The position numbers and the translations under genes were made by a program. The notes below the pieces were generated by a model, which saw only the letters and a list, made by a program, of their open reading frames with translations, did not search any database and was not told the origin of the DNA. 64,000 bases of DNA from TPA_inf: Saccharomyces (Eukaryota). Shown one piece after another: positions 733 through 64,000 of the stretch; within the stretch, counting starts at the first letter, position 1; each line of letters begins with the position of its first letter. Location: positions 512,001 to 576,000 of the forward strand of contig BK006941.2 of the NCBI GenBank assembly GCA_000146045.2, read 5' to 3'.

Positions 733-1158
733 GTTTATTACAACTCTGATACTGCAGCAGTTCAAATTTACCACTTTCCTCTTCAAGGTGCATAGAAAAA
801 AAGTTCCTGGATGCACGATTTAAAATGTTTACAGCAGAGCAACAATCATGTGAACAATGTCAAACATTTATTTTAACACTTAATAATTATAATATAACCA
901 CACCAGCGGTAAGTTTCATAAGGAAAACCTTTCAGACAAACATTCCAGTGAATCGTATACGTAAATCAGCAAAATTAGCTTATAAAATACAGAATCCGAA
1001 GATACTTGATCTACTCGCGTTACTATTAATGCGGGTAATGATCTATATTGAATTTTGCACGTCTATAGTAACTTAAAAGTCTTGTAATATTTGAAGTAAC
1101 AATGCCGTATAATACTGCATAATAGCCCTATCAATCGGAATATACCAAAACATCCTTT

Positions 1159-2340: not shown

Positions 2341-2553
2341 CATAGATGTATAAATCAGTACTGAGTTATCTTCTATTAAATTGTAGGAACAAATATAAAA
2401 AAGCAGTTTTCGCTGCTACATTTTTTGCTACTTTCCGTGGTAATGATGCCCGCTAAAAAGTGCAAAAGTAATTAGATAGATCAAGAACAAAAACAGACCA
2501 GGACCAAAATCAAGCTCATAAAAGTTCCTTAAGAGTACGTCGATTTACAGAAC

Positions 2554-4416: not shown

Positions 4417-4942
4417 AACAGAAGGGCCTTGGCGCGCGTCCCAAAAGGGAAAGGCTCGCTCTGAAACAGGCGAAGACACGAAAACAAATTACCGTTTCGG
4501 GGCGTTTTGCAGCAAGTGGCTAGACACGTCGGGCGTTGCCAGATCAAAATAGCACCAGTGGGTGTTTTTTTACTATCTCATCTTCGTGCTGATATATATA
4601 ACTTTTATACATTTCCATAGTACCAAGTTCTTTATTTCCTGCATTTTTACATTTATAATAGATTACCAAAACTATTCGACCTCACCAAGGGACCCCATAA
4701 TATTGCTAAAATAATCTTACCTGTTTTTTACCATTTTTTTCTTTTTTTCCAGAAGTAATAAGCTCTCTCTTAGAAGAACTAAAAGCATCTGACTTCGGCT
4801 CGTTCCAACCGACCAAAATATTTGTGAAAATATTATTCATTCCTTTAACGACTTATTGTGTATTCTGTTCATCTCTAGCTGGCTTCCACCTCGTTTCCTA
4901 TTTTTATTGACTTTTCATTAGGCTTCCTAATTATACCCATCT

Positions 4943-22458: not shown

Positions 22459-23218
22459 GATTTATTAAATGTTCTATGATAAAGTAAAAAGTAAAAACAT
22501 ACTTGTTAGTAAAAAACCGAACTCTAGTAGAATTTGGGATAAAGACTATTTGCTAATGACTTGAATTGTAGATTGAATTTAACTGTAAATCACCACTAAG
22601 TACGTAGTTTCCTTCTCTCAAAGTACCATGGGTAGCTAGATCTGTGCTATGGAGCATATAACAGAGACATGGATATTCATCCCATTAAGGTAGAACAGGC
22701 TTTTATGACATATTAAATCCTGGATTGGCCAGTCACTATTTCATCTTATCCGCCTAATATTGGTTTCAAATTTATAGATACATACACTAAAACTAACAGG
22801 GCTTGACGGTTTTCGATAACAAAGAATACGATTTCAATATTCAACTGAGCAATCTTAATAGTATTAAATGCTTCGTGAACTTTAAGAGATACTTCGTGAA
22901 GTTGTTCTGTCGCACAATTCTTCCTGTAGAAGGCGTCCTTCGTTTTTTTGTCTTCGCGCGTTACAGGGTAAATGAACCTCTTTATGGGTGAATGGGTTAC
23001 ACAAATGCACGGATGCATATATAAAATATAGAATTTTGCTTTATATTATTTTGAGCGGGCTAGAATCCACTCAGTGTACAAAGTACTATTCATTATATTG
23101 AACTGAAGAGGCAAGAACTATTTAGCTCAATCAACCACCTTAATAAAGTATTTGGAGTGATATATCGGCTTGTTTTAGTTTAATTCTTGTGGATATTTAG
23201 ATATCAAGGTTGTTGGAA

Positions 23219-23514
23219 TAAAAATCCACTATCGTCTATCAACTAATAGTTATATTATCAATATATTATCATATACGGTGTTAAGATGATGACATAAGTT
23301 ATGAGAAGCTGTCATCGAAGTTAGAGGAAGCTGAAGTGCAAGGATTGATAATGTAATAGGATAATGAAACATATAAAACGGAATGAGGAATAATCGTAAT
23401 ATTAGTATGTAGAAATATAGATTCCATTTTGAGGATTCCTATATCCTTGAGGAGAACTTCTAGTATATTCTGTATACCTAATATTATAGCCTTTATCAAC
23501 AATGGAATCCCAAC
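23219..23514 (+). repeat. Ty1-type delta LTR, 3'-truncated (solo delta)
   Basis: Starts TGTTGGAATAAAAATCCACTATCG and is nearly identical to the LTRs of the adjacent Ty1 for about 295 bp. It diverges after ...atctcaacattc. Confidence 0.85.
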
Positions 23515-23759
23515 AATTATCTCAACATTCCCCCATTTTTCAAAGGTAATTTTTGGAATTCCTTGCAAAGCTGTAATTAGGTATACAAAATACACTAGAT
23601 ACTCTACTCGACGATATAGTAATCCTCATAAGGGAATCGGTATTTCTAATATTACGTTATTTTTATTTTCTTTTACTGTTTTCTATGTTGTAGTTCATAA
23701 TTCCATAACATTATTAATCCTAGTGCTTCAGCTTCCATTGAATCTGATGACTTTTTCTC
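23515..23759 (-). repeat. Divergent delta-like LTR fragment in the opposite orientation, 5'-truncated by the Ty1 insertion
   Basis: Its reverse complement aligns with internal and 3' delta sequence (gagaa..gtcatc..ggaagctgaagc..aggatt.ataatgt....gtatacctaat) at roughly 75-80% identity. Confidence 0.6.
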
Positions 23760-24056
23760 TGTTGGAATAAAAATCCACTATCGTCTATCAACTAATAGTT
23801 ATATTATCAATATATTATCATATACGGTGTTAAGATGATGACATAAGTTATGAGAAGCTGTCATCGAAGTTAGAGGAAGCTGAAACGCAAGGATTGATAA
23901 TGTAATAGGATCAATGAATATAAACATATAAAACGGAATGAGGAATAATCGTAATATTAGTATGTAGAAATATAGATTCCATTTTGAGGATTCCTATATC
24001 CTCGAGGAGAACTTCTAGTATATTCTGTATACCTAATATTATAGCCTTTATCAACA

Positions 24057-25379
24057 ATGGAATCCCAACAATTATCTCAACATTCACATATTTCTCATGG
24101 TAGCGCCTGTGCTTCGGTTACTTCTAAGGAAGTCCACACAAATCAAGATCCGTTAGACGTTTCAGCTTCCAAAACAGAAGAATGTGAGAAGGCTTCCACT
24201 AAGGCTAACTCTCAACAGACAACAACACCTGCTTCATCAGCTGTTCCAGAGAACCCCCATCATGCCTCTCCTCAAACTGCTCAGTCACATTCACCACAGA
24301 ATGGGCCGTACCCACAGCAGTGCATGATGACCCAAAACCAAGCCAATCCATCTGGTTGGTCATTTTACGGACACCCATCTATGATTCCGTATACACCTTA
24401 TCAAATGTCGCCTATGTACTTTCCACCTGGGCCACAATCACAGTTTCCGCAGTATCCATCATCAGTTGGAACGCCTCTGAGCACTCCATCACCTGAGTCA
24501 GGTAATACATTTACTGATTCATCCTCAGCGGACTCTGATATGACATCCACTAAAAAATATGTCAGACCACCACCAATGTTAACCTCACCTAATGACTTTC
24601 CAAATTGGGTTAAAACATACATCAAATTTTTACAAAACTCGAATCTCGGTGGTATTATTCCGACAGTAAACGGAAAACCCGTACGTCAGATCACTGATGA
24701 TGAACTCACCTTCTTGTATAACACTTTTCAAATATTTGCTCCCTCTCAATTCCTACCTACCTGGGTCAAAGACATCCTATCCGTTGATTATACGGATATC
24801 ATGAAAATTCTTTCCAAAAGTATTGAAAAAATGCAATCTGATACCCAAGAGGCAAACGACATTGTGACCCTGGCAAATTTGCAATATAATGGCAGTACAC
24901 CTGCAGATGCATTTGAAACAAAAGTCACAAACATTATCGACAGACTGAACAATAATGGCATTCATATCAATAACAAGGTCGCATGCCAATTAATTATGAG
25001 AGGTCTATCTGGCGAATATAAATTTTTACGCTACACACGTCATCGACATCTAAATATGACAGTCGCTGAACTGTTCTTAGATATCCATGCTATTTATGAA
25101 GAACAACAGGGATCGAGAAACAGCAAACCTAATTACAGGAGAAATCTGAGTGATGAGAAGAATGATTCTCGCAGCTATACGAATACAACCAAACCCAAAG
25201 TTATAGCTCGGAATCCTCAAAAAACAAATAATTCGAAATCGAAAACAGCCAGGGCTCACAATGTATCCACATCTAATAACTCTCCCAGCACGGACAACGA
25301 TTCCATCAGTAAATCAACTACTGAACCGATTCAATTGAACAATAAGCACGACCTTCACCTTAGGCCAGGAACTTACTGA
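24057..25379 (+). CDS. TYA: Ty1 TYA (Gag), 440 aa
   Basis: 440-aa [29 protein letters not shown]... starting inside the 5' LTR. Confidence 0.95.
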
Positions 25380-28300
25380 ATCTACGGTAAATCACACTAA
25401 TCATTCTGATGATGAACTCCCTGGACACCTCCTTCTCGATTCAGGAGCATCACGAACCCTTATAAGATCTGCTCATCACATACACTCAGCATCATCTAAT
25501 CCTGACATAAACGTAGTTGATGCTCAAAAAAGAAATATACCAATTAACGCTATTGGTGACCTACAATTTCACTTCCAGGACAACACCAAAACATCAATAA
25601 AGGTATTGCACACTCCTAACATAGCCTATGACTTACTCAGTTTGAATGAATTGGCTGCAGTAGATATCACAGCATGCTTTACCAAAAACGTCTTAGAACG
25701 ATCTGACGGCACTGTACTTGCACCTATCGTACAATATGGAGACTTTTACTGGGTATCTAAAAGGTACTTGCTTCCATCAAATATCTCCGTACCCACCATC
25801 AATAATGTCCATACAAGTGAAAGTACACGCAAATATCCTTATCCTTTCATTCATCGAATGCTTGCGCATGCCAATGCACAGACAATTCGATACTCACTTA
25901 AAAATAACACCATCACGTATTTTAACGAATCAGATGTCGACTGGTCTAGTGCTATTGACTATCAATGTCCTGATTGTTTAATCGGCAAAAGCACCAAACA
26001 CAGACATATCAAAGGTTCACGACTAAAATACCAAAATTCATACGAACCCTTTCAATACCTACATACTGACATATTTGGTCCAGTTCACAACCTACCAAAA
26101 AGTGCACCATCCTATTTCATCTCATTTACTGATGAGACAACAAAATTCCGTTGGGTTTATCCATTGCACGACCGTCGCGAGGACTCTATCCTCGATGTAT
26201 TTACCACGATACTAGCTTTCATTAAAAACCAATTTCAGGCCAGTGTCTTGGTTATACAAATGGACCGTGGTTCTGAGTATACTAACAGAACTCTCCATAA
26301 ATTCCTTGAAAAAAATGGTATAACTCCATGCTATACAACCACAGCGGATTCCCGAGCACATGGAGTCGCTGAACGGCTAAACCGTACCTTATTAGATGAC
26401 TGCCGTACTCAACTGCAATGTAGTGGTTTACCGAACCATTTATGGTTCTCTGCAATCGAATTTTCTACTATTGTGAGAAATTCACTAGCTTCACCTAAAA
26501 GCAAAAAATCTGCAAGACAACATGCTGGCTTGGCAGGACTTGATATCAGTACTTTGTTACCTTTCGGTCAACCTGTTATCGTCAATGATCACAACCCTAA
26601 CTCCAAAATACATCCTCGTGGCATCCCAGGCTACGCTCTACATCCGTCTCGAAACTCTTATGGATATATCATCTATCTTCCATCCTTAAAGAAGACAGTA
26701 GATACAACTAACTATGTTATTCTTCAGGGCAAGGAATCCAGATTAGATCAATTCAATTACGACGCACTCACTTTCGATGAAGACTTAAACCGTTTAACTG
26801 CTTCATATCATTCGTTCATTGCGTCAAATGAGATCCAAGAATCCAATGATCTTAACATAGAATCTGACCATGACTTCCAATCCGACATTGAACTACATCC
26901 TGAGCAACCGAGAAATGTCCTTTCAAAAGCTGTGAGTCCAACCGATTCCACACCTCCGTCAACTCATACTGAAGATTCGAAACGTGTTTCTAAAACCAAT
27001 ATTCGCGCACCCAGAGAAGTTGACCCCAACATATCTGAATCTAATATTCTTCCATCAAAGAAGAGATCTAGCACCCCCCAAATTTCCAATATCGAGAGTA
27101 CCGGTTCGGGTGGTATGCATAAATTAAATGTTCCTTTACTTGCTCCCATGTCCCAATCTAACACACATGAGTCGTCGCACGCCAGTAAATCTAAAGATTT
27201 CAGACACTCAGACTCGTACAGTGAAAATGAGACTAATCATACAAACGTACCAATATCCAGTACGGGTGGTACCAACAACAAAACTGTTCCGCAGATAAGT
27301 GACCAAGAGACTGAGAAAAGGATTATACACCGTTCACCTTCAATCGATGCTTCTCCACCGGAAAATAATTCATCGCACAATATTGTTCCTATCAAAACGC
27401 CAACTACTGTTTCTGAACAGAATACCGAGGAATCTATCATCGCTGATCTCCCACTCCCTGATCTACCTCCAGAATCTCCTACCGAATTCCCTGACCCATT
27501 TAAAGAACTCCCACCGATCAATTCTCGTCAAACTAATTCCAGTTTGGGTGGTATTGGTGACTCTAATGCCTATACTACTATCAACAGTAAGAAAAGATCA
27601 TTAGAAGATAATGAAACTGAAATTAAGGTATCACGAGACACATGGAATACTAAGAATATGCGTAGTTTAGAACCTCCGAGATCGAAGAAACGAATTCACC
27701 TGATTGCAGCTGTAAAAGCAGTAAAATCAATCAAACCAATACGGACAACCTTACGATACGATGAGGCAATCACCTATAATAAAGATATTAAAGAAAAAGA
27801 AAAATATATCGAGGCATACCACAAAGAAGTCAATCAACTGTTGAAGATGAAAACTTGGGACACTGACGAATATTATGACAGAAAAGAAATAGACCCTAAA
27901 AGAGTAATAAACTCAATGTTTATCTTCAACAAGAAACGTGACGGTACTCATAAAGCTAGATTTGTTGCAAGAGGTGATATTCAGCATCCTGACACTTACG
28001 ACTCAGGCATGCAATCCAATACCGTACATCACTATGCATTAATGACATCCCTGTCACTTGCATTAGACAATAACTACTATATTACACAATTAGACATATC
28101 TTCGGCATATTTGTATGCAGACATCAAAGAAGAATTATACATAAGACCTCCACCACATTTAGGAATGAATGATAAGTTGATACGTTTGAAGAAATCACTT
28201 TATGGATTGAAACAAAGTGGAGCGAACTGGTACGAAACTATCAAATCATACCTGATACAACAATGTGGTATGGAAGAAGTTCGTGGATGGTCATGCGTAT

Positions 28301-29325
28301 TTAAAAACAGTCAAGTGACAATTTGTTTATTCGTAGATGATATGGTATTGTTTAGCAAAAATCTAAATTCAAACAAAAGAATTATAGACAAGCTTAAGAT
28401 GCAATACGACACCAAGATTATAAATCTAGGCGAAAGTGATGAGGAAATTCAATATGACATTCTTGGCTTGGAAATCAAATACCAAAGAGGTAAATACATG
28501 AAATTGGGTATGGAAAACTCATTAACTGAAAAAATACCCAAACTAAACGTACCTTTGAACCCAAAAGGAAGGAAACTTAGCGCTCCAGGTCAACCAGGTC
28601 TATATATAGACCAGCAAGAACTAGAGCTAGAAGAAGATGATTACAAAATGAAGGTACATGAAATGCAAAAGCTGATAGGTCTAGCATCATATGTTGGATA
28701 TAAATTTAGATTTGACCTATTATACTACATCAACACACTTGCACAACATATACTATTTCCGTCCAAGCAAGTGTTAGATATGACATATGAATTGATACAG
28801 TTCATATGGAATACGAGAGATAAGCAATTAATATGGCACAAAAGCAAACCTGTTAAGCCAACAAATAAATTAGTTGTTATAAGCGATGCCTCGTATGGCA
28901 ACCAACCGTATTATAAATCACAAATTGGCAACATATATTTACTTAATGGAAAGGTAATTGGAGGAAAGTCCACCAAGGCTTCATTAACATGTACTTCAAC
29001 TACGGAAGCAGAAATACACGCGATAAGTGAATCTGTCCCATTATTAAATAATCTAAGTTACCTGATACAAGAACTTGACAAGAAACCAATTACCAAAGGA
29101 TTACTAACCGACAGTAAATCTACAATCAGTATAATTATATCCAATAATGAAGAGAAATTTAGGAACAGATTTTTTGGTACTAAAGCAATGAGATTGAGAG
29201 ATGAAGTATCAGGAAATCATCTGCACGTATGCTATATCGAAACCAAAAAGAATATTGCAGACGTAATGACCAAACCTCTTCCGATAAAAACATTCAAACT
29301 ATTAACAAACAAATGGATTCATTAG
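25359..29325 (+). CDS. TYB: Ty1 TYB (protease-integrase-RT-RNase H), expressed as a Gag-Pol fusion by +1 ribosomal frameshift at CTT AGG C (25359-25365)
   Basis: +1 frame ORF 25606-29325 with protease DSGAS, the integrase HHCC/DDE core, RT YxDD (FVDDM) and RNase H motifs. The frameshift heptamer is in the TYA frame, 38 bp before the TYA stop. Confidence 0.95.
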
Positions 29326-29849
29326 ATCTATTACATTATGGGTGGTATGTTGGAATAAAAATCCACTATCGTCTATCAACTAATAGTTATATTATCAATA
29401 TATTATCATATACGGTGTTAAGATGATGACATAAGTTATGAGAAGCTGTCATCGAAGTTAGAGGAAGCTGAAACGCAAGGATTGATAATGTAATAGGATC
29501 AATGAATATAAACATATAAAACGGAATGAGGAATAATCGTAATATTAGTATGTAGAAATATAGATTCCATTTTGAGGATTCCTATATCCTCGAGGAGAAC
29601 TTCTAGTATATTCTGTATACCTAATATTATAGCCTTTATCAACAATGGAATCCCAACAATTATCTCAACATTCACATATTTCTCATTCTCAATCTTCATG
29701 GTATCTTTTTTACACCGTATATGATAAAATACAAGTAATATAAATACCAGCCACTGGATGACATTGAAATTTTATTCTAATAAATGCATCAGCTCTTTAA
29801 AAACATTGCTATTTAGCTATTTGAAGCCAGAAATTTTCACAGATTACCA

Positions 29850-29921
29850 TCCGATATAGTGTAACGGCTATCACATCACGCTTTCACCGTGGAGACCGGG
29901 GTTCGACTCCCCGTATCGGAG
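29850..29921 (+). tRNA. tE(UUC): tRNA-Glu (anticodon UUC)
   Basis: tccgatatagtgtaacggctatcacatcacgctttcaccgtggagaccggggttcgactccccgtatcggag matches yeast tRNA-Glu(UUC). It lies 165 bp downstream of the Ty1 3' LTR. Confidence 0.95.
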
Positions 29922-32648: not shown

Positions 32649-33680
32649 AGAAATATCTGTGAAATGTGACTCTTATAGCATACTATTTTAGTTATGAATT
32701 GTGAAAATCCTCCCTGTCCTGCGTTCTACAATTTATTTAGTACTTGTTTGGCAAAAACGTCTCTCAGTGCCATTTACTTTGTAAAAAGTGCAGACTACAT
32801 CGCATCAACGGTCATATTAGGAGCCACTTCTATTTTTAACTCAACATGATCATTCAAAAATGTCGATACACTTGCATTTTATTGTACATACTAGTTGGAA
32901 GAGGCAGCGTCGATTTTGCTGAAATTTCTAGTAACTTGTAGCAGCAATACATTATATCATAAAAATAACCTGACTTGTAAAAGTTGAAACCCTAACTTTT
33001 ATTATTTCTTTCAATATTTTTCGATTAGACGTGAAAGATGACCAAGCACAACTAACAAAAAATTTGCATCCTCATAAAAAGCAAGACTTTTTGTATGTCG
33101 AAACAAAATTATTAAAAAACACGCATTAACACAGACACGAATTTGGCATACTTTCATTTTACTTTATATCTAGTGAAAAGTAGAAATTGTTTAAGGGAAC
33201 TACTTCACAGTGACCACTGATACTAGAATATGGAAATAAGAAAAGTTGCTAAGTAGGAGCCTAACAATCTTTTTTTATATTTTTCCATATTCCTTTATTG
33301 TCATGGGTCAAGACTGTATATGTTAGTGAAAGTTTTAGGGTTCTTGTGACAAACTTCACCAACATAAACATGGCCTCTTCGAAGATCCGTAGATTTTGCA
33401 TTTTTGCGGTGGTTTATGGATTCAAAGCGAGGCCTAAATTAACGATCATGTCTTTGCTATTATATCAGAGGGCATATCATTGAATTTCCGATTTCCAAAG
33501 GGAAGAAAATAAATAAAGTTGTGCTATTTCCATGCATCCTTTTTTCTTTCATTCAATGACACATACTTCTTGTAGTAGGAACAATTGGTAGTTCTGATAT
33601 CGATTAAGCCTTCTAAAAATGCTTTATATTATAAAGTACAAATGCAAGAAGTAGCTATGGATGCTAAAGAGCTGGTCGAT

Positions 33681-48681: not shown

Positions 48682-49350
48682 ATGACCGAATTAGATTATC
48701 AAGGAACTGCTGAGGCGGCTTCTACCTCGTATAGTCGAAATCAAACGGACCTTAAGCCGTTTCCTTCTGCAGGCAGTGCATCTTCATCAATTAAAACGAC
48801 GGAACCTGTGAAAGATCATAGAAGAAGGCGTTCTTCCAGCATAATTTCACATGTGGAACCGGAGACTTTTGAAGATGAAAATGACCAGCAACTTCTACCA
48901 AATATGAATGCTACTTGGGTAGACCAACGCGGCGCTTGGATTATTCATGTGGTCATTATCATACTGCTGAAACTATTTTATAATTTATTTCCTGGTGTTA
49001 CCACAGAATGGTCGTGGACTCTGACTAATATGACATATGTTATTGGGTCCTATGTCATGTTCCATCTGATTAAGGGTACCCCTTTCGATTTCAATGGTGG
49101 TGCTTATGACAACTTGACGATGTGGGAACAAATTGACGACGAGACTTTATATACTCCTTCAAGAAAATTTTTGATTAGTGTCCCGATCGCCCTATTCTTA
49201 GTTAGTACTCATTATGCTCACTATGATTTGAAATTGTTTTCATGGAATTGTTTTTTGACAACCTTTGGTGCTGTTGTCCCAAAGTTACCTGTTACTCATA
49301 GATTAAGGATTTCTATCCCAGGTATCACAGGTCGCGCCCAAATTAGTTGA
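48682..49350 (+). CDS. ORM1: ORMDL-family regulator of serine palmitoyltransferase, 222 aa
   Basis: 222-aa ORF with an N-terminal Ser-rich phosphoregulatory region and a conserved ORMDL membrane core. Confidence 0.9.
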   Translation: MTELDYQGTAEAASTSYSRNQTDLKPFPSAGSASSSIKTTEPVKDHRRRRSSSIISHVEPETFEDENDQQLLPNMNATWVDQRGAWIIHVVIIILLKLFYNLFPGVTTEWSWTLTNMTYVIGSYVMFHLIKGTPFDFNGGAYDNLTMWEQIDDETLYTPSRKFLISVPIALFLVSTHYAHYDLKLFSWNCFLTTFGAVVPKLPVTHRLRISIPGITGRAQIS

Positions 49351-49661
49351 ACATAGTTTATTTCAATCTTGTATCTAGATGTTTTTGCTATATTTATATT
49401 TTCTGGGCCAAATCACTAACGCTTTGAAATTTCAAAAGCCAACAACGGATTTCGGACTTCATTTATGTAAATGAAAAAGAATGTGAACAAAAATTGAAAA
49501 AATTCCATATTAATGCACCTTCTAAACCTATTTGTTGAAATTGTATTTAATTCATATAATCATATTCTATTCAAAAAGAATAACAGATAGTATTAGCACT
49601 ATTTCACGTACTGCTTCTAATACTATTATCACAAAATAGACATCGGAAAACTCAAAAATAA

Positions 49662-49743
49662 CGACAACTGCAGGACTCGAACCTGCGCGGGCAAAGCCCA
49701 AAAGATTTCTAATCTTTCGCCTTAACCACTCGGCCAAGTTGCC
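49662..49743 (-). tRNA. tS(AGA): tRNA-Ser (anticodon AGA), 82 nt with long variable arm
   Basis: The reverse complement, ggcaacttggccgagtggttaaggcgaaagattagaaatcttttgggctttgcccgcgcaggttcgagtcctgcagttgtcg, matches yeast tRNA-Ser(AGA). Confidence 0.95.
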
Positions 49744-50198
49744 AATGTATACATTGCTGTTTCCTGGTTTGAAGAAGCTAATCGTGCACGTAAACAACAA
49801 TCTATACTACAAGTAAAAAAATGGGGAAAAAGATGCTGAAGGTGAGATATATGTGGGTAATTAGATAATTGTTGGGATTCCATTGTTGATAAAGGCTATA
49901 ATATTAGGTATACAGAATATACTAGAAGTTCTCCTCGAGGATTTAGGAATCCATAAAAGGGAATCTGCAATTCTACACAATTCTATAAATATTATTATCA
50001 TCGTTTTATATGTTAATATTCATTGATCCTATTACATTATCAATCCTTGCGTTTCAGCTTCCACTAATTTAGATGACTATTTCTCATCATTTGCGTCATC
50101 TTCTAACACCGTATATGATAATATACTAGTAATGTAAATACTAGTTAGTAGATGATAGTTGATTTCTATTCCAACATACCACCCATAATGTAATAGAT

Positions 50199-53100
50199 CT
50201 AATGAATCCATTTGTTAGTTAATAGTTTAAATGTTTTTATCGGAAGAGGTTTTGTCATCACATCAGCAATGTTCTTCTTGGTCTCGATGTAGTATACGTA
50301 TAGATTATTACCTGATACTTCATCTCTAAGTCTCATTGCCTTTGTGCCAAAAAATCTGTTTCTAAATTTCTCTTCATTTGTAGACTTAATTATACTGATC
50401 GTTGATCTACTATCAGTAAGTAAGCCTTTAATAATTGGTTTCTTGTTAAGTTCTTGCACAAGGTGACTGAGGTTATTCAATAGCGGAATAGCTTCACTGA
50501 CTGCGTGTATTTCTGCTTCTGTAGTTGAAGTGCATGTTAACGAAGCCTTTGTCGACTTTCCTCCAATCACTTTTCCGTTGAGTAGGAAAATGTTACCAAT
50601 TTGTGACTTGTAATATGGTTGGTTACCATATGAAGCATCGCTTATTGCGACTAGTTTATTATCTGGCTCGGTAGGTTTGTTTTTGTGCCATATCAGTTGT
50701 TTATCTCTAGTGTCCCACATGAATTGTATTAACTCATATGTCATGTCTAAAACTTGCCTAGAGGGGAATAGTATATGTTGAGCAAGTGTGTTGATGTAGT
50801 ATAGTAAGTCAAATCTAAATTTATATCCAACATATGAAGCTAGACCAATCAACTTTTGCATTTCATGTACCTTCTCTTTGTATTCATCTTCATCTATTTC
50901 TAGTTCATCCTGGTCTATATAAAGACCTGGTTGACCTGGAGCGCTAAGTTTTCTTCCTTTTGGATTCAAAGGTACGTTTAATTTGGGTATTTTCTCAGTT
51001 AATGAGTTTTCCATACCTAATTTCATGTATTTACCTCTTTGATATTTGATTTCTAAGCCAAGTATGTCGTACTGAATTTCGTTATCACTTTCACCCAGAT
51101 TTATTATCTTTGTATCGTATTGTTTCTTGAGTGTTGTTATGATTTTCTTATTTGCATTTAAGTCTTTGCTGAACAATATCATATCATCAACGAATAAGCA
51201 AATTGTTACTTGACTATTCTTAAATACGCATGACCATCCACGAACTTCTTCCATACCACACTGTTTTATCAGGTATGATTTGATAGTTTCGTACCAGTTC
51301 GCTCCACTTTGTTTCAATCCATAAAGTGATTTCTTCAAACGTATCAACTTATCATTCATTCCTAAATGTGGTGGAGGTCTTATGTATAATTCTTCTTTGA
51401 TGTCTGCATACAAATATGCCGAAGATATGTCTAATTGTGTAATATAGTAGTTATTGTCTAATGCAAGTGACAGGGATGTCATTAATGCATAGTGATGTAC
51501 GGTATTGGATTGCATGCCTGAGTCGTAAGTGTCAGGATGCTGAATATCACCTCTTGCAACAAATCTAGCTTTATGAGTACCGTCACGTTTCCTGTTGAAG
51601 ATAAACATTGAATTTATTACTCTTTTAGGGTCTATTTCTTTTCTGTCATAATATTTGTCAGTGTCCCAAGTATTCATTTTCAATAGTTGGTTGACTTCTT
51701 TGTGGTATGCTTCGATATATTTTTCCTTTTCTTTAATATCTTTATTATAGGTGATTGCCTCATCGTATCTTAAGGTTGTCCGTATTGGTTTGATTGATTT
51801 TACTGCTTTTACAGCTGCAATCAGGTGAATTCGTTTCTTCGATCTCGGAGGTTCTAAACTACGCATATTCTTAGTATTCCATGTGTCTCGTGATACCTTA
51901 ATTTCAGTTTCATTATCTTCTAATGATCTTTTCTTACTGTTGATAGTAGTATAGGCATTAGAGTCACCAATACCACCCAAACTGGAATTAGTTTGATGAG
52001 AATTTATCGGTGGGAGTTCTTTAAATGGGTCAGGGAATTCGGTAGGAGATTCTGGAGGTAGATCAGGGAGTGGGAGATCAGCGATGATAGATTCCTCGGT
52101 ATTCTGTTCAGAAACAGTAGTTGGCGTTTTGATAGGAACAATATTGTGCGATGAATTATTTTCCGGTGGAGAAGCATCGATTGAAGGTGAACGGTGTATA
52201 ATCCTTTTCTCAGTCTCTTGGTCACTTATCTGCGGAACAGTTTTGTTGTTGGTACCACCCGTACTGGATATTGGTACGTTTGTATGATTAGTCTCATTTT
52301 CACTGTACGAGTCTGAGTGTCTGAAATCTTTAGATTTACTGGCGTGCGACGACTCATGTGTGTTAGATTGGGACATGGGAGCAAGTAAAGGAACATTTAA
52401 TTTATGCATACCACCCGAACCGGTACTCTCGATATTGGAAATTTGGGGGGTGCTAGATCTCTTCTTTGATGGAAGAATATTAGATTCAGATATGTTGGGG
52501 TCAACTTCTCTGGGTGCGCGAATATTGGTTTTAGAAACACGTTTCGAATCTTCAGTATGAGTTGACGGAGGTGTGGAATCGGTTGGACTCACAGCTTTTG
52601 AAAGGACATTTCTCGGTTGCTCAGGATGTAGTTCAATGTCGGATTGGAAGTCATGGTCAGATTCTATGTTAAGATCATTGGATTCTTGGATCTCATTTGA
52701 CGCAATGAACGAATGATATGAAGCAGTTAAACGGTTTAAGTCTTCATCGAAAGTGAGTGCGTCGTAATTGAATTGATCTAATCTGGATTCCTTGCCCTGA
52801 AGAATAACATAGTTAGTTGTATCTACTGTCTTCTTTAAGGATGGAAGATAGATGATATATCCATAAGAGTTTCGAGACGGATGTAGAGCGTAGCCTGGGA
52901 TGCCACGAGGATGTATTTTGGAGTTAGGGTTGTGATCATTGACGATAACAGGTTGACCGAAAGGTAACAAAGTACTGATATCAAGTCCTGCCAAGCCAGC
53001 ATGTTGTCTTGCAGATTTTTTGCTTTTAGGTGAAGCTAGTGAATTTCTCACAATAGTAGAAAATTCGATTGCAGAGAACCATAAATGGTTCGGTAAACCA

Positions 53101-54165
53101 CTACATTGCAGTTGAGTACGGCAGTCATCTAATAAGGTACGGTTTAGCCGTTCAGCGACTCCATGTGCTCGGGAATCCGCTGTGGTTGTATAGCATGGAG
53201 TTATACCATTTTTTTCAAGGAATTTATGGAGAGTTCTGTTAGTATACTCAGAACCACGGTCCATTTGTATAACCAAGACACTGGCCTGAAACTGGTTTTT
53301 AATAAAAGCTAGTATCGTAGTAAAAACATCGAGGATAGAGTCCTCGCGACGGTCGTGTAATGGATAAACCCAACGGAATTTTGTTGTCTCATCAGTAAAT
53401 GAGATGAAATAGGATGGTGCACTATTTGGTAGGTTGTGAACTGGACCAAATATGTCAGTATGTAGGTATTGAAAGGGTTCGTATGAATTTTGGTATTTTA
53501 GTCGTGAACCTTTGATATGTCTGTGTTTGGTGCTTTTGCCGATTAAACAATCAGGACATTGATAGTCAATAGCACTAGACCAGTCGACATCTGATTCGTT
53601 AAAATACGTGATGGTGTTATTTTTAAGTGAGTATCGAATTGTCTGTGCATTGGCATGCGCAAGCATTCGATGAATGAAAGGATAAGGATATTTGCGTGTA
53701 CTTTCACTTGTATGGACATTATTGATGGTGGGTACGGAGATATTTGATGGAAGCAAGTACTTTTTAGATACCCAGTAAAAGTCTCCATATTTTACGATAG
53801 GTGCAAGTACAGTGCCGTCAGATCGTTCTAAGACGTTTTTGGTAAAGCATGCTGTGATATCTACTGCAGCCAATTCATTCAAACTGAGTAAGTCATAGGC
53901 TATGTTAGGAGTGTGCAATACCTTTATTGATGTTTTGGTGTTGTCCTGGAAGTGAAATTGTAGGTCACCAATAGCGTTAATTGGTATATTTCTTTTTTGA
54001 GCATCAACTACGTTTATGCCAGGATTAGATGATGCTGAGTGTATGTGGTGAGCAGATCTTATAAGGGTTCGTGATGCTCCTGAATCGAGAAGGAGGTGTC
54101 CAGGGAGTTCATCATCAGAATGATTAGTGTGATTTACCGTAGATTCAGTAAGTTCCTGGCCTAAG
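50199..54165 (-). CDS. TYB: Ty1 TYB (Pol), expressed by +1 frameshift as a Gag-Pol fusion
   Basis: 1239-aa +1-frame ORF with protease, integrase and RT/RNase H motifs. Confidence 0.95.
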
Positions 54166-55467
54166 ATGAAGGTCGTGCTTATTGTTCAATTGAATCGGTT
54201 CAGTAGTTGATTTACTGATGGAATCGTTGTCCGTGCTGGGAGAGTTATTAGATGTGGATACATTGTGAGCCCTGGCTGTTTTCGATTTCGAATTATTTGT
54301 TTTTTGAGGATTCCGAGCTATAACTTTGGGTTTGGTTGTATTCGTATAGCTGCGAGAATCATTCTTCTCATCACTCGGATTTCTCCTGTAATTAGGTTTG
54401 CTGTTTCTCGATCCCTGTTGTTCTTCATAAATAGCATGGATATCTAAGAACAGTTCAGCGACTGTCATATTTAGATGTCGATGACGTGTGTAGCGTAAAA
54501 ATTTATATTCGCCAGATAGACCTCTCATAATTAATTGGCATGCGACCTTGTTATTGATATGAATGCCATTATTGTTCAGTCTGTCGATAATGTTTGTGAC
54601 TTTTGTTTCAAATGCATCTGCAGGTGTACTGCCATTATATTGCAAATTTGCCAGGGTCACAATGTCGTTTGCCTCTTGGGTATCAGATTGCATTTTTTCA
54701 ATACTTTTGGAAAGAATTTTCATGATATCCGTATAATCAACGGATAGGATGTCTTTGACCCAGGTAGGTAGGAATTGAGAGGGAGCAAATATTTGAAAAG
54801 TGTTATACAAGAAGGTGAGTTCATCATCAGTGATCTGACGTACGGGTTTTCCGTTTACTGTCGGAATAATACCACCGAGATTCGAGTTTTGTAAAAATTT
54901 GATGTATGTTTTAACCCAATTTGGAAAGTCATTAGGTGAGGTTAACATTGGTGGTGGTCTGACATATTTTTTAGTGGATGTCATATCAGAGTCCGCTGAG
55001 GATGAATCAGTAAATGTATTACCTGACTCAGGTGATGGAGTGCTCAGAGGCGTTCCAACTGATGATGGATACTGCGGAAACTGTGATTGTGGCCCAGGTG
55101 GAAAGTACATAGGCGACATTTGATAAGGTGTATACGGAATCATAGATGGGTGTCCGTAAAATGACCAACCAGATGGATTGGCTTGGTTTTGGGTCATCAT
55201 GCACTGCTGTGGGTACGGCCCATTCTGTGGAGGTGGTACTGAAGCAGGTTGAGGAGAGGCATGATGGGGGTTCTCTGGAACAGCTGATGAAGCAGGTGTT
55301 GTTGTCTGTTGAGAGTTAGCCTTAGTGGAAGCCTTATCATATTCTTGAATTTTGGAAGCTGAAACGTCTAACGGATCTTGATTTGTGTGGACTTCCTTAG
55401 AAGTAACCGAAGCACAGGCGCTACCATGAGATATATGTGAATGTTGAGATAATTGTTGGGATTCCAT
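54145..55467 (-). CDS. TYA: Ty1 TYA (Gag), 440 aa
   Basis: 440-aa ORF with the canonical ...[19 protein letters not shown]... Gag sequence. Confidence 0.95.
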
Positions 55468-57094
55468 TGTTGATAAAGGCTATAATATTAGGTATACAGA
55501 ATATACTAGAAGTTCTCCTCGAGGATTTAGGAATCCATAAAAGGGAATCTGCAATTCTACACAATTCTATAAATATTATTATCATCGTTTTATATGTTAA
55601 TATTCATTGATCCTATTACATTATCAATCCTTGCGTTTCAGCTTCCACTAATTTAGATGACTATTTCTCATCATTTGCGTCATCTTCTAACACCGTATAT
55701 GATAATATACTAGTAATGTAAATACTAGTTAGTAGATGATAGTTGATTTCTATTCCAACAGAAGGAGATAAAAATTTCAAAATGTTTCTATGATAAATTT
55801 ATAATGAATTTATAATAATGTTTTGGGCTGTTTCCCTTTAGATTATTTAGCTTATCGTACATAATCGCACATAATCAGACTCTTTATTATATATAATTAA
55901 ATATTTCGAGATTTACATACTAGTGGTTACTTAAAAGTGTAATCGCAAATTATATCAGAAATGAACAAAGATACGCAGTCCAAATTATTGACAACAACCA
56001 GCATATGTACTTAGTAATATTTTATGAAGTTACTAAATCAAGATTAGAAACGTAAAAATAGAATAACATGATCAAGTTCAAGTCTGAATTTCCTTTAATA
56101 TTTGGATAAGTAAATTCACTACGTGACATGATTGGTTGGTGCCAACATAACACAATTTTAACATTATGTAATCTACAGGATAAGTAGCATTCTGTGTAAC
56201 AAATTGTAGTAAGTCTGGCAAATCTCTACTCTCTTAAAGGTATAAGGATTGTCCAGATACCCGATATTACTAGAGGCCGTCATGTATAAAATGTGGTAAC
56301 GTAAAATATACACTTAACAGAAAGTTAAAAAAGGTTAAGTTATACGTGGCTTTCTCCTTTTTTCTTTTCAAGTACCTACCTGCTGTTAATTAATAGTTAA
56401 TATTGATCACGAGAATAACAGATCTTCATATACAGTATAAGAGAGATCTATAAAACTAAAAATGGATAGATTTTGATGAAATTCGTGGGCCGATATACTC
56501 TTCAGTTTGTCATTCATGATTTATTATAATATAGACTTCATAAGTGAACTTTGTAGTTTCTGGTGATTACTATAGCGATACTTTTCGAATAGTCACAACA
56601 AGAGCTTCTGCTTCACGTTTTTTGGAAACAAAAGACTGAGGAGGGGCTAAATATAAATACTGATTCATATTACGAAAGGAAATAAAAAAATAACTATATG
56701 TAGATTTATATTAATATTGTATAATTGCAGTCCTTGTATTTGAAGAGAATGTGGATTTTGATGTAATTGTTGGGATTCCATTGTGATTAAGGCTATAATA
56801 TTAGGTATGTAGATATACTAGAAGTTCTCCTCGAGGATTTAGGAATCCATAAAAGGGAATCTGCAATTCTACACAATTCTATAAATATTATTATCATCAT
56901 TTTATATGTTAATATTCATTGATCCTATTACATTATCAATCCTTGCGTTTCAGCTTCCACTAATTTAGATGACTATTTCTCATCATTTGCGTCATCTTCT
57001 AACACCGTATATGATAATATACTAGTAACGTAAATACTAGTTAGTAGATGATAGTTGATTTTTATTCCAACATACCACCCATAATGTAATAGAT

Positions 57095-60000
57095 CTAATG
57101 AATCCATTTGTTAGTTAATAGTTTAAATGTTTTTATCGGAAGAGGTTTTGTCATCACATCAGCAATGTTCTTCTTGGTCTCGATGTAGTATACGTATAAA
57201 TTATTACCTGATACTTCATCTCTAAGTCTCATTGCCTTTGTGCCAAAAAATCTGTTTCTAAATTTCTCTTCATTTGTAGACTTAATTATACTGATCGTTG
57301 ATCTACTATCAGTAAGTAAGCCTTTAATAATTGGTTTCTTGTTAAGTTCTTGCACAAGGTGACTGAGGTTATTCAATAGCGGAATAGCTTCACTGACTGC
57401 GTGTATTTCTGCTTCTGTAGTTGAAGTGCATGTTAACGAAGCCTTTGTCGACTTTCCTCCAATCACTTTTCCGTTGAGTAGGAAAATGTTACCAATTTGT
57501 GACTTGTAATATGGTTGGTTACCATATGAAGCATCGCTTATTGCGACTAGTTTATTATCTGGCTTGGTAGGTTTGTTTTTGTGCCATATTAATTGTTTAT
57601 CTCTAGTGTCCCACATGAATTGTATTAACTCATATGTCATGTCTAAAACTTGCCTAGAGGGGAATAGTATATGTTGAGCAAGTGTGTTGATGTAGTATAG
57701 TAAGTCAAATCTAAATTTATATCCAACATATGAAGCTAGACCAATCAACTTTTGCATTTCATGTACTTTCTCTTTGTATTCATCTTCATCTATTTCTAGT
57801 TCATCCTGGTCTATATAATGACCTGGTTGACCTGGAGCTCTAAGTTTCTTTCCTTTTGGGTTCAAAGGTACGTTTAGTTTGGGTAATTTTTCTGTCAAGG
57901 ATTTTTCCATACCTAATTTCATGTACTTGCTTCTTTGATATTTGATCTCTAATCCAAGTATGTCGTACTGAATTTCGTTATCACTTTCACCCAGATTTAT
58001 TATCTTTGTATCGTATTGTTTCTTGAGTGTTGTTATGATTTTCTTATTTGCATTTAAGTCTTTGCTGAATAATATCATATCATCAACGAATAAGCAAATT
58101 GTTACTTGACTATTCTTAAATACGCATGACCATCCGCGAACTTCTTGCATGTCGCAACAATTTATTAAATATGATTTAATGGTTTCATACCAGTTTGCAC
58201 CACTTTGTTTCAAACCATAGAGTGATTTTCTCAAACGTAGTAATTTATCATTCAAACCTAAATGTGGTGGAGGTCTTATGTATAATTCTTCTTTGATATC
58301 AGCATATAAGTAAGCAGAGGATATGTCCAGCTGTGTGATATAATAGTCGTTGTCTAATGCGATTGACAGTGACGTCATCAGTGCATAGTGATGTACGGTA
58401 TTGGATTGCATATCAGAATCATATGTATCGGGGTGTTGAATGTCGCCTCTTGCAACAAATCTAGCTTTGTGTGTACCATCACGTTTCTTGTTAAATATAA
58501 ACATTGAGTTTATTACTTTTTTAGGATCTATGTCATTTCTATCATAATATTTGTTTGTATCCCAAGTGTTCATTTTCAATAGTTGGCTAATTTCTTTATG
58601 ATAAGCTTCAACATATCTGTCTTTTTCTTTGTTGTCTTTATTATATGTAATTGCTTCATCATATCTTAAGGTCGTTCGAACTGGTTTGATCGATTTCACT
58701 CCTTTTATTGCTGCAATTAAATTTATGCGTTTCTTCGATCTTGGTGGTTCCAGACTTCTCATATTCTTATTATTCCATGTGTCTCGGGATACCTCAATTT
58801 CAGTTTCATTATCTTCTAATGATCTTTTCTTACTTTTGGTAGTAGTCAGAACATTAGAATCATCCATACCACCCAAACTGGAATTAGTCTGACGAGAGTG
58901 TATGTGTGGAATATCTTTTGAAACATCAGAAGTGTCCGTAGGAGATTTATGGGTTAAGTCAGGAAGTGGGAGGTCGTCAAGAATAGAATCAGCCGTAACA
59001 TTTTTTGAGGATTTGTCAGGCATTATATTAGGAGTCGCATGGTCAGAAGATCGATATTCTGGCGGATCCGTATCAATGGAGGGTGTATTATCACATACAG
59101 CCTTTGTTTCTATGGAGATGATGGGAGTAGTGGATTCACTGTTGGACGAACGGTCATCTATTGAGGGCGTACTATTTGTAGTCCTGTATTTGATATTTGT
59201 ATCACTATTTCGTTGAATATATGGTTCCTCCGTACCACCCAAACGTGTAGTTTTGATGTTTTCAAGTCCATAATTAACTCTATCCTGTGAGGTCAAATCA
59301 ATCATCTCATTGGTACTACCAGGTCGGTTTTGGTTTCGTGCAGTGAAGGTAGACGAGTGTCTAGGTGAAGTAGTATCTGATTCAACGGTACCACCCATTT
59401 CGGTACTCTCTTTATTAATGATATGGGGTGTACGAGATCGTATAGTAGATGGAAGAATATTGTATTCAGATATGTCGGCATCAACTTCTTTTGGTGCACG
59501 TACTTTTTGGACTGGTTCCTTGTCTAATTGTAAAGGGTTTATTGATTGGGACGAGAAGTCGTTCACTAGAGGATCAGAGTTTATTTCAATCTCCGATTGA
59601 TAGTCATGATCAGATTCTGTATTTTGATCATATGACTGCTCTGTTTCATTTTGTTCAATAAAAGATTGGTTATGGGCTGTTAAACGATTGAGATCATCAT
59701 CAAAAGTGAGTGTATCGTAGTCGAACTGGTCCAATTTCGTTTGCTTGTTTTGTAATATAACGTAATTGGTAGTATCTACTGTCTTTTTTAATGATGGAAG
59801 ATAGATAATATAGCCATAAGAGTTTCGTGACGGATGTAAGGCGTAACCTGGAATGCCACGAGGATGTATTTTCGAGTCGGGATTATGGTTGTTAACTATA
59901 ACCGGTTGACCGAAAGGTAGTATAGTAGTAATGTCCAGTCCAGCTAAACCTGCATGTTGTCTTGCAGATTTATCGTTTTTTTGGTGAGACTAATGAATTT

Positions 60001-61136
60001 CTGATTATAGTAGAAAATTCGACTGCTGAGAACCATAGATGATTTGGTAGACCACTGCAATGAAGCAGTGTGCGACAATCGTTTAATAAAGTACGATTTA
60101 ATCGTTCAGCGACACCGTGTGCTCTAGAATCTGCCGTGGTTGTATAGCATGCAGTAATACCTCTGTTCGTAAAGAACTTATGAAGAGTTTTGTTAGTGTA
60201 CTCGGAGCCACGATCCATCTGGATAACTAGAACGCGAGCATTGAATTGGTTCTTAATAAATGCTAATATCGATGTAAAAACATTGAGGATAGATTCTTCA
60301 CGACGGTCGTGTAATGGGTACACCCATTGGAATCTGGTTTTCTCATCTGTAAACGATATAAAGTAAGAAGGTGCACTTTTCGGTAAGTGATGTACAGGAC
60401 CAAATATATCGGTGTGCAAGTACTGAAAAGGCTCATATGATTCTTGGTACTTTAGTCGTGATCCTTTGACATGTCTATGTTTCGTGCTTTTGCCGATTAG
60501 ACAGTCAGGACATTGATATGTGCTAGCGTTAGACCATTCAATATCCGATTCCTTCAAATATGTAACTGCATTCTTCTTAAGAGACTTCTGAATACTTCGG
60601 AAGTTAGCATGTCCAAGCATTCGATGTATTAACGGATATGGATATTTATTTACGCTTTTGCTTTTGTTGACGTTGTTTATTGTTAGCTTTGAAATGTGCG
60701 AAGGAATTAGGTATTTTTTAGATAACCAGTAAAAGTCTCCATGTTTGACTATGGGAGCTAGTACTGTACCATCCGATCTTTCTAAAGTGTTTCTGGTAAA
60801 GCAGGCAGTAATATTTTGATTAGCCAGCTCACTCAAACTTAATAGATCATAGGCTATGTTTGGTGTGTGTAGTGCTTTTATTGATGTTTTGGTGCCGTTC
60901 TGAAAGTTGAAGTGAAGATTACCAATGGCATTTATAGGAATGTCTTGTTTTTGAGCATCGACTATGTTTATTTCAGAATTGGGTGTTGCATGGTGTAAAT
61001 AATGGGCTGATCTGACAAGCGTTTGCGAAGCTCCTGAATCAATAAGAAGGTGATCAGGTAGTTCGTCATTCGAGTCTATTGTGTGTGTTGGCTTAGATTC
61101 TTTCTGTTGCTGGCCTAAGACTAAGTTCGTCGTCAT
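57095..61136 (-). pseudogene. TYB: Ty2 TYB (Pol) split into two ORFs (59970-61136 and 57095-59734) by a frameshift in a T7/A7 homopolymer at 59976-59982
   Basis: The upstream piece ends ...SLVSPKKR-stop. The -1 frame continues [25 protein letters not shown]... straight into the downstream ORF, so restoring 2 nt (or removing 1) in the A-run would give one continuous Pol. Confidence 0.8.
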
Positions 61137-62409
61137 CGCTTAAGTATTGTGATGAAACGGTTGATTCATTAATGTGATCATTGTTCACCCTTGAGAATTT
61201 ACTAGATGTAGCAATATTGTGAGCTTTTGCTGCTCTTGGTTTTGAACTATTTGTTCTATGATAATTACGAGTTGTAACCTTTGTGTTAGTCGTGTTTGGA
61301 GATGTGCGAGAAACATTTTTGTATTCGCTGTGTTGTTTGTATTGGGACGGTTTATTTAGATTCATGATTTTATTTTCGTCATATATTAATTGAATTTCAG
61401 CGAATAATTGGGAAAGTTTCATGTTCGTTTTGGTACGATATTGATTACGTAGGTATTTGAAGTCACCGGATAGACCTTTAAGTATTAGTTGACAGGCCAA
61501 TCTGTCGCTAACATTGATATTGTTTTCTTTTAGCCTCTGAATGATCGTACTGACTGTAATTTCAAATGTATCAGCAGATGTACTTCCGTCGTACTCAAGG
61601 TTGGCAAGAGCTATCCAATCCTTTAATTCTTGATTGTTAGTTTGCATTTTGGACACACTTTTACAAAGGACTGTAAGGATGTCAGCATAATTAATTTCTA
61701 AAATTTGTTTTACCCATGTTGGCAATAAATGAAATGGGGCAAATGCTTGGAAGGTATTGTATATATACGCATGTTCTTCATAAGTCATTTGTCTTTTGAT
61801 TTCACCCTGGTCATTTGGAATGATGTCACCGAGATTAGAGTTCTTCAAAAATCTGATGTAAAATTTAACCCATGTAGAAAAGTTTTCTTCTGATGTTAAA
61901 GTGTGTGGTGGTAAGACGTTATTTCCCACCTTTGTCTTAGCTTGAGGTATTTCAGAGTGTTGATTTTTTAAATCGATTGGATCAGGTGAGGAAGTACTCA
62001 GTGGTGGGATATACTGTGGCAACGGATAGTGTGGGTCCGGTTGATAATACGCAGGTGACGTTTGATAATGTGAACACGTCATCATAGATGGTTGTTGGTA
62101 ATGTGCCCAGTTAGAGGCCATAGCTTTGTTTGGGGTCATCATGCCGTGCTGTTGGTACTGTCCATTCTGTGGAGGTGGTACTGAAGCAGGTTGAGGAGAG
62201 ACATGATGATGGTTCTCTGGAACAGCTGATGTCCCAGGTGTTGTCTCTTGTTGAGAATTAACCTTAGTGGAATCTCTATCAAATTCCGGTAAATTGGAAG
62301 CTGAAACGGCTAACGGATCTTGATTTTATGGGACTTCCTTAGAAGTAACCGAAGCATAGGCGCTACCATGAAGAGAATGTGGATTTTGATGTAATTGTTG
62401 GGATTCCAT
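61093..62409 (-). pseudogene. TYA: Ty2 TYA (Gag) with a premature stop at codon 27 (TAA at 62326-62328, minus strand). The remaining ORF 61093-62142 restarts at an internal Met.
   Basis: From the ATG at 62407-62409 the frame reads [27 protein letters not shown]-stop-NQDPLAV..., whereas Ty2 Gag continues here (other copies have a sense codon). Confidence 0.8.
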
Positions 62410-62887
62410 TTTTTATAAGGCGATAATATTAGGTATGTAGATATACTAGAAGTTCTCCTCGAGGATTTAGGAATCCATAAAAGGGAATCTGCAATTCTAC
62501 ACAATTCTATAAATATTATTATCATCATTTTATATGTTAATATTCATTGATCCTATTACATTATCAATCCTTGCGTTTCAGCTTCCACTAATTTAGATGA
62601 CTATTTTTCATCATTTGCGTCATCTTCTAACACCGTATATGATAATATACTAGTAACGTAAATACTAGTTAGTAGATGATAGTTGATTTTTATTCCAACA
62701 GTATTTATGTTTTGTCATTCTTTTCTACATAATCTTGAAACTAGGTAGATCTACAATTGAAAAGTAAATACTAACATTATTTACTAAATTTAAGTTAGAA
62801 ATCGGCACGAAAAAAATTTGACAGATTACGAGAGTCCAGCCAAAATATGAGTATATTACTATTTCCCCTTGGTGAAAGAAATGAAAG

Positions 62888-63301: not shown

Positions 63302-64000
<699 letters not shown>

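Follow-up and report, generated by a model that had tools for sequence, protein, structure and literature searches.

Ty1-GR2, a full-length Ty1 retrotransposon upstream of a tRNA-Ser gene on Saccharomyces cerevisiae chromosome VII: structure, insertion site and Ty1/Ty2 mosaic composition

The element and its chromosomal setting

A 64,000-nucleotide stretch of chromosome VII of S. cerevisiae S288C (contig BK006941.2, positions 512,001 to 576,000 of the forward strand; the whole of this stretch is referred to as the window, and coordinates are window positions unless stated otherwise) was analysed, and an element of 5918 bp, Ty1-GR2, was located on the minus strand at 49843-55760. To its left, the window contains open reading frames (ORFs) for a 1895-amino-acid glucan synthase, TIM21, ribosomal protein L26, a PAP2-family protein, an ACBP and an ORMDL protein of 222 amino acids (48682-49350), with an ORF of 239 amino acids also on this side, and to its right a kinase gene which starts at 63399. 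The flanking ORFs are ones we take to be GSC2, TIM21, CAX4 and ORM1 on the left and KSS1 on the right, and Pfam marks at the orthologous loci of other assemblies agree with these flanking-gene names. Between the ORMDL gene and the element lies a tRNA-Ser(AGA) gene, which is described together with the insertion site.

Elements of the Ty1 family are retrotransposons with long terminal repeats (LTRs) and are of the Ty1-copia type (Pseudoviridae). The element described here is almost certainly YGRCTy1-2 (Ty1-GR2; ORFs YGR038C-A and YGR038C-B), the full-length Ty1 between ORM1 and KSS1. Its predicted Gag protein of 440 amino acids was found by exact-protein match to be identical, residue for residue, to Q12485/NP_058161 ('Transposon Ty1-GR2'), and the Gag-Pol protein of 1755 amino acids, assembled across the frameshift by skipping the A in CTT-A-GGC, was likewise identical to Q12269/NP_058160 (Ty1-GR2). 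These exact matches, taken together with the chromosome VII flanking ORFs, therefore identify the element as YGRCTy1-2; proteins and flanking genes are the same as those of the annotated copy, no difference from it was detected, and nothing contradicts the identification.

The ends of the element were read directly in the sequence, in agreement with a first-pass annotation that had been made from the sequence alone; the plus strand runs TGAGATAT...TTCCAACA and the minus strand TGTTGG...TCTCA. Both LTRs have the expected length of 334 bp and TG...CA termini. The 3' LTR (49843-50176, minus strand) and the 5' LTR (55427-55760, minus strand) each consist of a Ty2-type U3 and a Ty1-type R-U5, and carry the U5 alleles ...ATCTAATTACCCACATATATCTCA and ...ATCTCAACATTCACATATATCTCA respectively. 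The pentamer GAAGG, previously noted as a target-site duplication (TSD), is present at both flanks, beside the 3' LTR at 49838-49842 and beside the 5' LTR at 55761-55765. With the local base composition, two flanks would agree over 5 bp by chance with a probability of ~0.0013, and the duplication was independently proven by the single GAAGG found at the unoccupied site in nine other S. cerevisiae assemblies.

Directly 3' of the 5' LTR is the primer-binding site (PBS) TGGTAGCGCC (55417-55426, minus strand), a site known in the family to pair with initiator tRNA-Met through that tRNA's 3' end, and the polypurine tract GGGTGGTA (50177-50184, minus strand) adjoins the 3' LTR. Three more copies of GGGTGGTA were seen on the minus strand in the integrase-coding region (52416-52409, 52260-52253 and 51978-51971). 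The internal copy at element nt 3783 stands in the context TTTGGGTGGTATTGG, which is similar to that of the 3' polypurine tract, and we presume that it may correspond to PPT2, the second plus-strand priming site of Ty1.

Retranslation of the coding regions revealed no stops and no frameshifts, so that TYA and TYB are intact, as had been claimed. TYA (gag) occupies 54145-55467 on the minus strand, with 440 codons and a TGA, no internal stops and a start at element nt 294 (window 55467). TYB (pol; 50199-54185, minus strand) has an open frame of 1328 codons plus TAG in the +1 frame relative to TYA, open from element nt 1576 onward to the stop at window 50199, and encodes protease, integrase and reverse transcriptase in that order. 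A TYB product of 1239 amino acids starting at TTG, as given by the ORF finder, was rejected as an artefact of bacterial start-codon rules. The +1 frameshift heptamer CTT AGG C reported earlier was found at 54159-54165 on the minus strand (element nt 1596), in TYA frame 0 within the TYA/TYB overlap.

Pfam domains were identified for TYA (PF01021, amino acids 17-400, E=1.7e-233), Pol_BBD (459-533), which is the protease beta-barrel, rve (663-763) and RVT_2 (1281-1487), and their order in Gag-Pol is the copia order. A separate RNase H match was not returned by Pfam for Gag-Pol, in which the motifs DSGAS, HHCC, integrase D154, FVDDM and DASYG are all present. TYA also contains in-frame Met249 and Met259, whose ATG codons lie at element nt 1038 and 1068. 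The PDB chains 7nlh and 7nli, which bear the name Ty1 Gag p22, begin with these two residues respectively, and Gag residues 249-359 match the 7nlh chain. Both Ty1 copies in the window, the second being a plus-strand element at 23760-29685, had been described as coding-competent in appearance; their frames are indeed open, and the catalytic and targeting motifs of Ty1-GR2 are intact.

Given what is established for the family, and with the component parts verified here in the sequence, the following life cycle would apply. RNA polymerase II would transcribe an R-U5...U3-R RNA from the 5' LTR, and this RNA would be translated into Gag and, through an occasional +1 ribosomal slip predicted at CUU AGG C, into Gag-Pol. 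Gag would assemble virus-like particles in which the protease would mature the proteins, initiator tRNA-Met, at the PBS, and the polypurine tract would serve as primers of reverse transcription, and integrase would insert the resulting cDNA with a 5-bp duplication.

LTR differences and Ty1/Ty2 mosaic structure

Comparison of the 5' and 3' LTRs, which had been suggested as a measure of the age of this copy, gave 329/334 identical positions (98.5% raw identity), a non-identity that the first-pass annotation did not note. All five differences were located within 7 bp near the end of U5, and the LTR positions outside this patch were identical (327/327); the differences form one patch and do not record ageing. 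When five differences were placed at random in 334 bp, so short a span was obtained in none of 2,000,000 trials, and the probability of such clustering is ~1.5e-7 by our own count. In U5, the 5' LTR agrees with the plus-strand Ty1 at 5/5 differing sites. The version in the 3' LTR occurs verbatim in four unrelated metagenome contigs, two of which carry it in a 5' LTR beside a PBS and two with other flanking DNA; it was not found in the twelve comparison loci, and in the window it is present only in the 3' LTR itself. Both versions are found in other Ty1 LTRs and are therefore pre-existing alleles. As judged from these sequence comparisons, the U5 difference is the product of one exchange event of the recombination type, not of accumulated mutation.

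As to how the exchange arose, it is tentatively suggested that the U5 pair may be the trace of reverse transcription in a particle with two different packaged Ty1 RNAs, although we give this less than even odds. In such a particle, minus-strand synthesis would continue across the second RNA's U5, which would give a heteroduplex U5 that would be resolved differently in each LTR. Alternatively, another Ty1, or Ty1 cDNA, may have converted the 5' LTR together with the internal region once the element had integrated.

The composition of the whole element was assessed at informative sites, defined as positions where the local plus-strand Ty1 and the local Ty2 (56741-62700) differ, with Ty1-GR2 scored against both. 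In element coordinates, nt 17-234 (U3 of the 5' LTR) were Ty2-like at 47/50 sites, and nt 260-4521, comprising R-U5 and most of the interior, were Ty1-like at >1300 sites. Within the latter segment, two small patches in 5' TYA (nt 412-425 and 513-530, corresponding to Gag residues 40-44 and 74-79) were Ty2-like, and nt 542-4491 were Ty1-like at >1200 informative sites, with 13-89% identity to Ty2 per 100-bp window. The following segment, nt 4542-5818 (3' TYB and U3 of the 3' LTR), was mostly Ty2-like over ~195 sites, and the Ty2-type stretch of 3' TYB comes to ~1.3 kb. The part at nt 4542-5584 was mostly Ty2-type; it contains a Ty1-like island at nt 4755-4838, followed by Ty2-type bases at 89/89 informative sites between nt 4909 and 5455. 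R-U5 of the 3' LTR (nt 5844-5915) was again Ty1-like. In both LTRs the switch of type falls between LTR positions 234 and 260, and overall the LTRs of Ty1-GR2 share 96% identity with the LTRs of the local Ty2, against 87% with the plus-strand Ty1's. The label 'Ty1' stands as the database name and for gag and hypervariable pol, which are Ty1-type; by sequence the element is more precisely a Ty1/2 hybrid, a point that the first-pass annotation did not note.

Ty1/2 hybrids, a class that PMC4022208 and PMC3511429 credit to Jordan and McDonald 1998, carry a Ty2 3' TYB segment and a 240-bp Ty2 U3, account for 18/32 of the Ty1 elements of S288C, and are presumably recombinants formed while RNA was being reverse-transcribed in heterozygous particles (PMC4022208; PMC3511429). 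Ty1-GR2 shares with them the ~240-bp Ty2 U3 in both LTRs, the Ty2 3' TYB and the Ty1 gag and hypervariable pol, and is a 'long' hybrid by the criterion of PMC4022208, since its Ty2 segment exceeds 300 bp. In addition to these shared features, it carries the Ty2-type patches in 5' TYA and the Ty1-type island at nt 4755-4838. The Ty2-type variants of Gag-Pol (residues 74-79, 1401-1607 and 1674-1725) are also present in the unlinked elements Ty1-JR1 and Ty1-ER1; JR1 and ER1 also have the Gag 74-79 patch, and LR1 the 40-44 patch. Ty1-GR2 belongs to this known hybrid lineage, and its Ty2-like parts were in all probability inherited from a hybrid parent. Its genome is of Ty1 type between R of the 5' LTR and ~nt 4520 and mostly of Ty2 type between ~nt 4540 and the end of U3 in the 3' LTR. 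When such a genome is reverse-transcribed, the product necessarily has two LTRs with a Ty2 U3 and a Ty1 R-U5, as both LTRs here do, since the RNA's 3' end supplies U3 and its 5' end supplies R-U5.

It is also conceivable that the Ty2-like parts were copied after insertion into a canonical Ty1 by ectopic gene conversion from the adjacent Ty2 (56741-62700), with which Ty1-GR2 lies close (980 bp), in tandem and in the same orientation; the complete agreement with this neighbour over nt 4909-5455 and the 97-99% identity of the U3 regions to it would fit such an event. Local conversion is nevertheless the weaker explanation, because Ty1-JR1 and Ty1-ER1, which are unlinked, have these Ty2-type amino-acid variants too. 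Furthermore, a switch close to the U3/R border that falls at one and the same place in both LTRs is automatic with a chimeric RNA and unexpected for two independent conversions, the hybrid class is common, as the above proportion of S288C elements indicates, and the U3 of Ty1-GR2 differs from that of the neighbouring Ty2 at a few sites. We regard local conversion as improbable. That the element is instead a Ty2, with or without patches of Ty1, could be argued from the LTR identities and the Ty2-type 3' 1.3 kb, but this has scarcely any probability, as gag and hypervariable pol, which together with a 1-bp deletion fixed in Ty2 LTRs discriminate the two families (PMC3511429), are Ty1-type at >1300 informative sites and only ~50-80% identical to Ty2, the proteins are those of Ty1-GR2, and the single-base gaps tagtata-tct and gcctt-a, seen in both local Ty2 LTRs (the two LTRs that served as reference), are in neither LTR of Ty1-GR2.

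Insertion site and occupancy in other strains

The tRNA-Ser(AGA) gene of 82 nt was placed by Rfam (RF00005, 58.8 bits) at 49662-49743 on the minus strand and is followed by the T-run TTATTTTT; the ARAGORN ends (anticodon aga) are 49661-49744 on the same strand. A spacer of 99 bp (49744-49842, minus strand), which includes the left copy of the TSD, separates the 5' end of the tRNA gene from the 3' LTR. The distance of 99 bp given earlier is exact with the Rfam ends and becomes 98 bp with those of ARAGORN, and the target pentamer is at positions -95 to -99 of the tRNA gene.

The presence or absence of the insertion across strains, the other check that had been proposed, was determined in ten S. 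cerevisiae chromosome-scale assemblies (L001 to L010) which were retrieved by exact ORM1 protein match and, being the longest contigs, are a non-random sample of strains. The ORM1-KSS1 interval was 1.3-2.6 kb in 10/10 assemblies, compared to 14 kb in the window. An uninterrupted target, ...GATGCTGAAGGAGATAAAAA..., with a single GAAGG was observed in 9/10, and the reconstructed empty site of 60 bp was matched at 60/60 positions in L004, L007 and L008. In the tenth assembly, L002, a deletion at 10904-11003 removes both the Ty1 target site and the tRNA-Ser gene. The Ty1-GR2 insertion was therefore absent from all ten assemblies and is polymorphic. The site of the Ty2 was also empty, with a single GTATT, in 10/10. 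L007 differs from the window at only ~4/2171 flanking bases, yet it is without both the Ty1 and the Ty2, from which it follows that the two elements inserted recently on this haplotype.

Other insertions were seen at the same locus in these strains. L001, L003, L005 and L006 have an inserted LTR of ~340 bp, not in the window, at a distance of 15 bp on the upstream side of this tRNA-Ser gene; in L003, where its sequence was read, it lies at 11079-11418 (TGTTGTAT...ATACAACA, TSD TTACT), and we take it to be a Ty3 sigma. L009 contains a solo delta at 11819-12147 which is 94% identical to the LTR of Ty1-GR2, and L010 an insert of ~480 bp at 11082-11560 containing a diverged delta. When other carriers of the Ty1-GR2 insertion were sought by exact Gag match, only two short metagenome scaffolds were returned (L011 and L012, from ENA), which are uninformative on presence or absence; they were rejected as carriers, since each is a chimera into which several Ty1 copies have been collapsed and has no flanks of any use. 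They illustrate that Ty sequences in short-read assemblies are not assignable to a locus.

Ty1 is documented to target nucleosomal DNA up to ~1 kb upstream of the genes that RNA polymerase III (Pol III) transcribes, with no insertions in the first ~80 bp and with periodic insertion hotspots (PMC10050235, PMC3545840). The 99 bp measured here falls inside this ~1-kb window and beyond the excluded ~80 bp, as the first-pass annotation had expected for Pol III-directed integration. The integrase (Gag-Pol residues 583-1217; 51816-53720, minus strand) has the HHCC motif, D154, a bipartite nuclear localisation signal (NLS) and the AC40-binding motif, and 635/635 of its residues align to chain W of PDB 7z0h (cryo-electron microscopy of Pol III-IN1; 1432 bits). 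KNMRSL is found at integrase residues 617-622 (window 51872-51855), and the bipartite NLS (KKR at 596-598 and KKR at 628-630) is intact; roles of the NLS and of the AC40-binding motif are documented (PMC7459421, PMC10050235). By analogy with the studied integrase, KNMRSL would bind AC40 and so tether the integrase to Pol III, leading to insertion upstream of tRNA genes.

Targeting is not provable from one insertion, and the adjacency to a tRNA gene might be held coincidental. This is highly unlikely, however: the position is within the documented window and outside its excluded part, 3/3 full-length elements in the window are upstream of tRNA genes (the plus-strand Ty1, ending at 29685, is 164 bp upstream of a tRNA-Glu gene), independent LTR insertions occurred in the same 1-kb stretch in other strains (L009, L010 and the sigma of L001, L003, L005 and L006), and the 1-kb upstream windows of ~275 tRNA genes make up only ~2% of the genome by our own estimate.

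The identity of the LTRs outside the U5 patch (327/327), taken with the empty site in other strains, indicates on sequence evidence that Ty1-GR2 is a young, non-fixed insertion. The contrary reading, in which the five LTR differences are independent substitutions amounting to ~1.5% divergence and the insertion is old, agrees with the raw LTR identity but has next to no chance of being correct, given that the differences are confined to 7 bp, that both versions are found elsewhere, verbatim in four unrelated metagenome contigs for the 3' LTR and at all five sites of the plus-strand Ty1 for the 5' LTR, that the other 327 positions are identical, and that the site is empty in the nearly identical haplotype L007.

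Some limits apply to this account of a recent, Pol III-directed insertion of a competent element. The strain sample was non-random, as stated; the date of the insertion is deduced from the sequence comparisons; retrotransposition competence and transcription are predicted from open frames and motifs; the tethering to Pol III is deduced from position and family knowledge; and the integrase responsible for the insertion came from the parent element, not from the Ty1-GR2 copy itself.

Neighbouring elements and implications

The Ty2 in tandem with Ty1-GR2 (56741-62700, minus strand; YGRCTy2-1 by position) is 5960 bp long, with 332-bp LTRs and the TSD GTATT, and lies 980 bp from Ty1-GR2 in the same orientation. 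It shares with Ty1-GR2 its organisation, PBS, frameshift heptamer and targeting, and the U3 and 3' TYB of the two are nearly identical, whereas gag and hypervariable pol are ~50-80% identical. Its frames are broken, the longest stretch in the TYA frame being 410 codons and TYB being split between two frames near nt 2712-2728; unlike Ty1-GR2, it is thus, as read from the sequence, not coding-competent. Before the arrival of the Ty1, its position would have been ~1.07 kb upstream of the tRNA-Ser gene, at the far limit of the range that targeting usually covers.

The plus-strand Ty1 (23760-29685; YGRWTy1-1 by position) is 5926 bp long, with the TSD TTCTC, open TYA and TYB and the heptamer CTTAGGC, and the tRNA-Glu(UUC) gene downstream of it is at 29850. 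It has the same architecture and length class as Ty1-GR2 and agrees with it at nearly all informative sites in nt 260-4521, nt 542-4491 being almost base-for-base identical. It differs in its LTRs, which have a Ty1-type U3, in 3' TYB (76-83% identity), and at 54 amino-acid positions of Gag-Pol. Directly beside it are a solo delta LTR (23211-23530, plus strand) and LTR fragments at 23544-23759 and 29712-29780 (both minus strand), which are remnants of earlier insertions at this tRNA-Asp/tRNA-Glu hotspot. The H/ACA small nucleolar RNA snR46 was also identified in the window at 33370-33566 on the plus strand (Rfam RF01253, 228 bits).

As a discovery, the element matters little: Ty1-GR2 is already annotated in the reference, its class has been described and the targeting mechanism has been solved structurally. 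YGRCTy1-2, YGRCTy2-1 and YGRWTy1-1 figure among the chromosome VII repeat regions in non-allelic recombination, for which the Ty1 and Ty2 in tandem here have been documented as a substrate (bioRxiv 10.1101/2025.05.08.650247). The details added here (the hybrid structure, the single U5 patch and the empty sites elsewhere) are descriptive and consistent with published work. The element is real but ordinary, and is useful as a clean positive control.

Two cautions follow for work on the family. Divergence between the LTRs cannot naively be read as age in this element, because the sole differences are one allelic patch. In addition, many S288C copies labelled 'Ty1' are Ty1/Ty2 mosaics, and this has a bearing on any assignment to a family that is made from LTRs or 3' ends. 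If the U5 pair does reflect two packaged RNAs, natural LTR pairs could be mined for the rate at which both packaged RNAs contribute to one cDNA.

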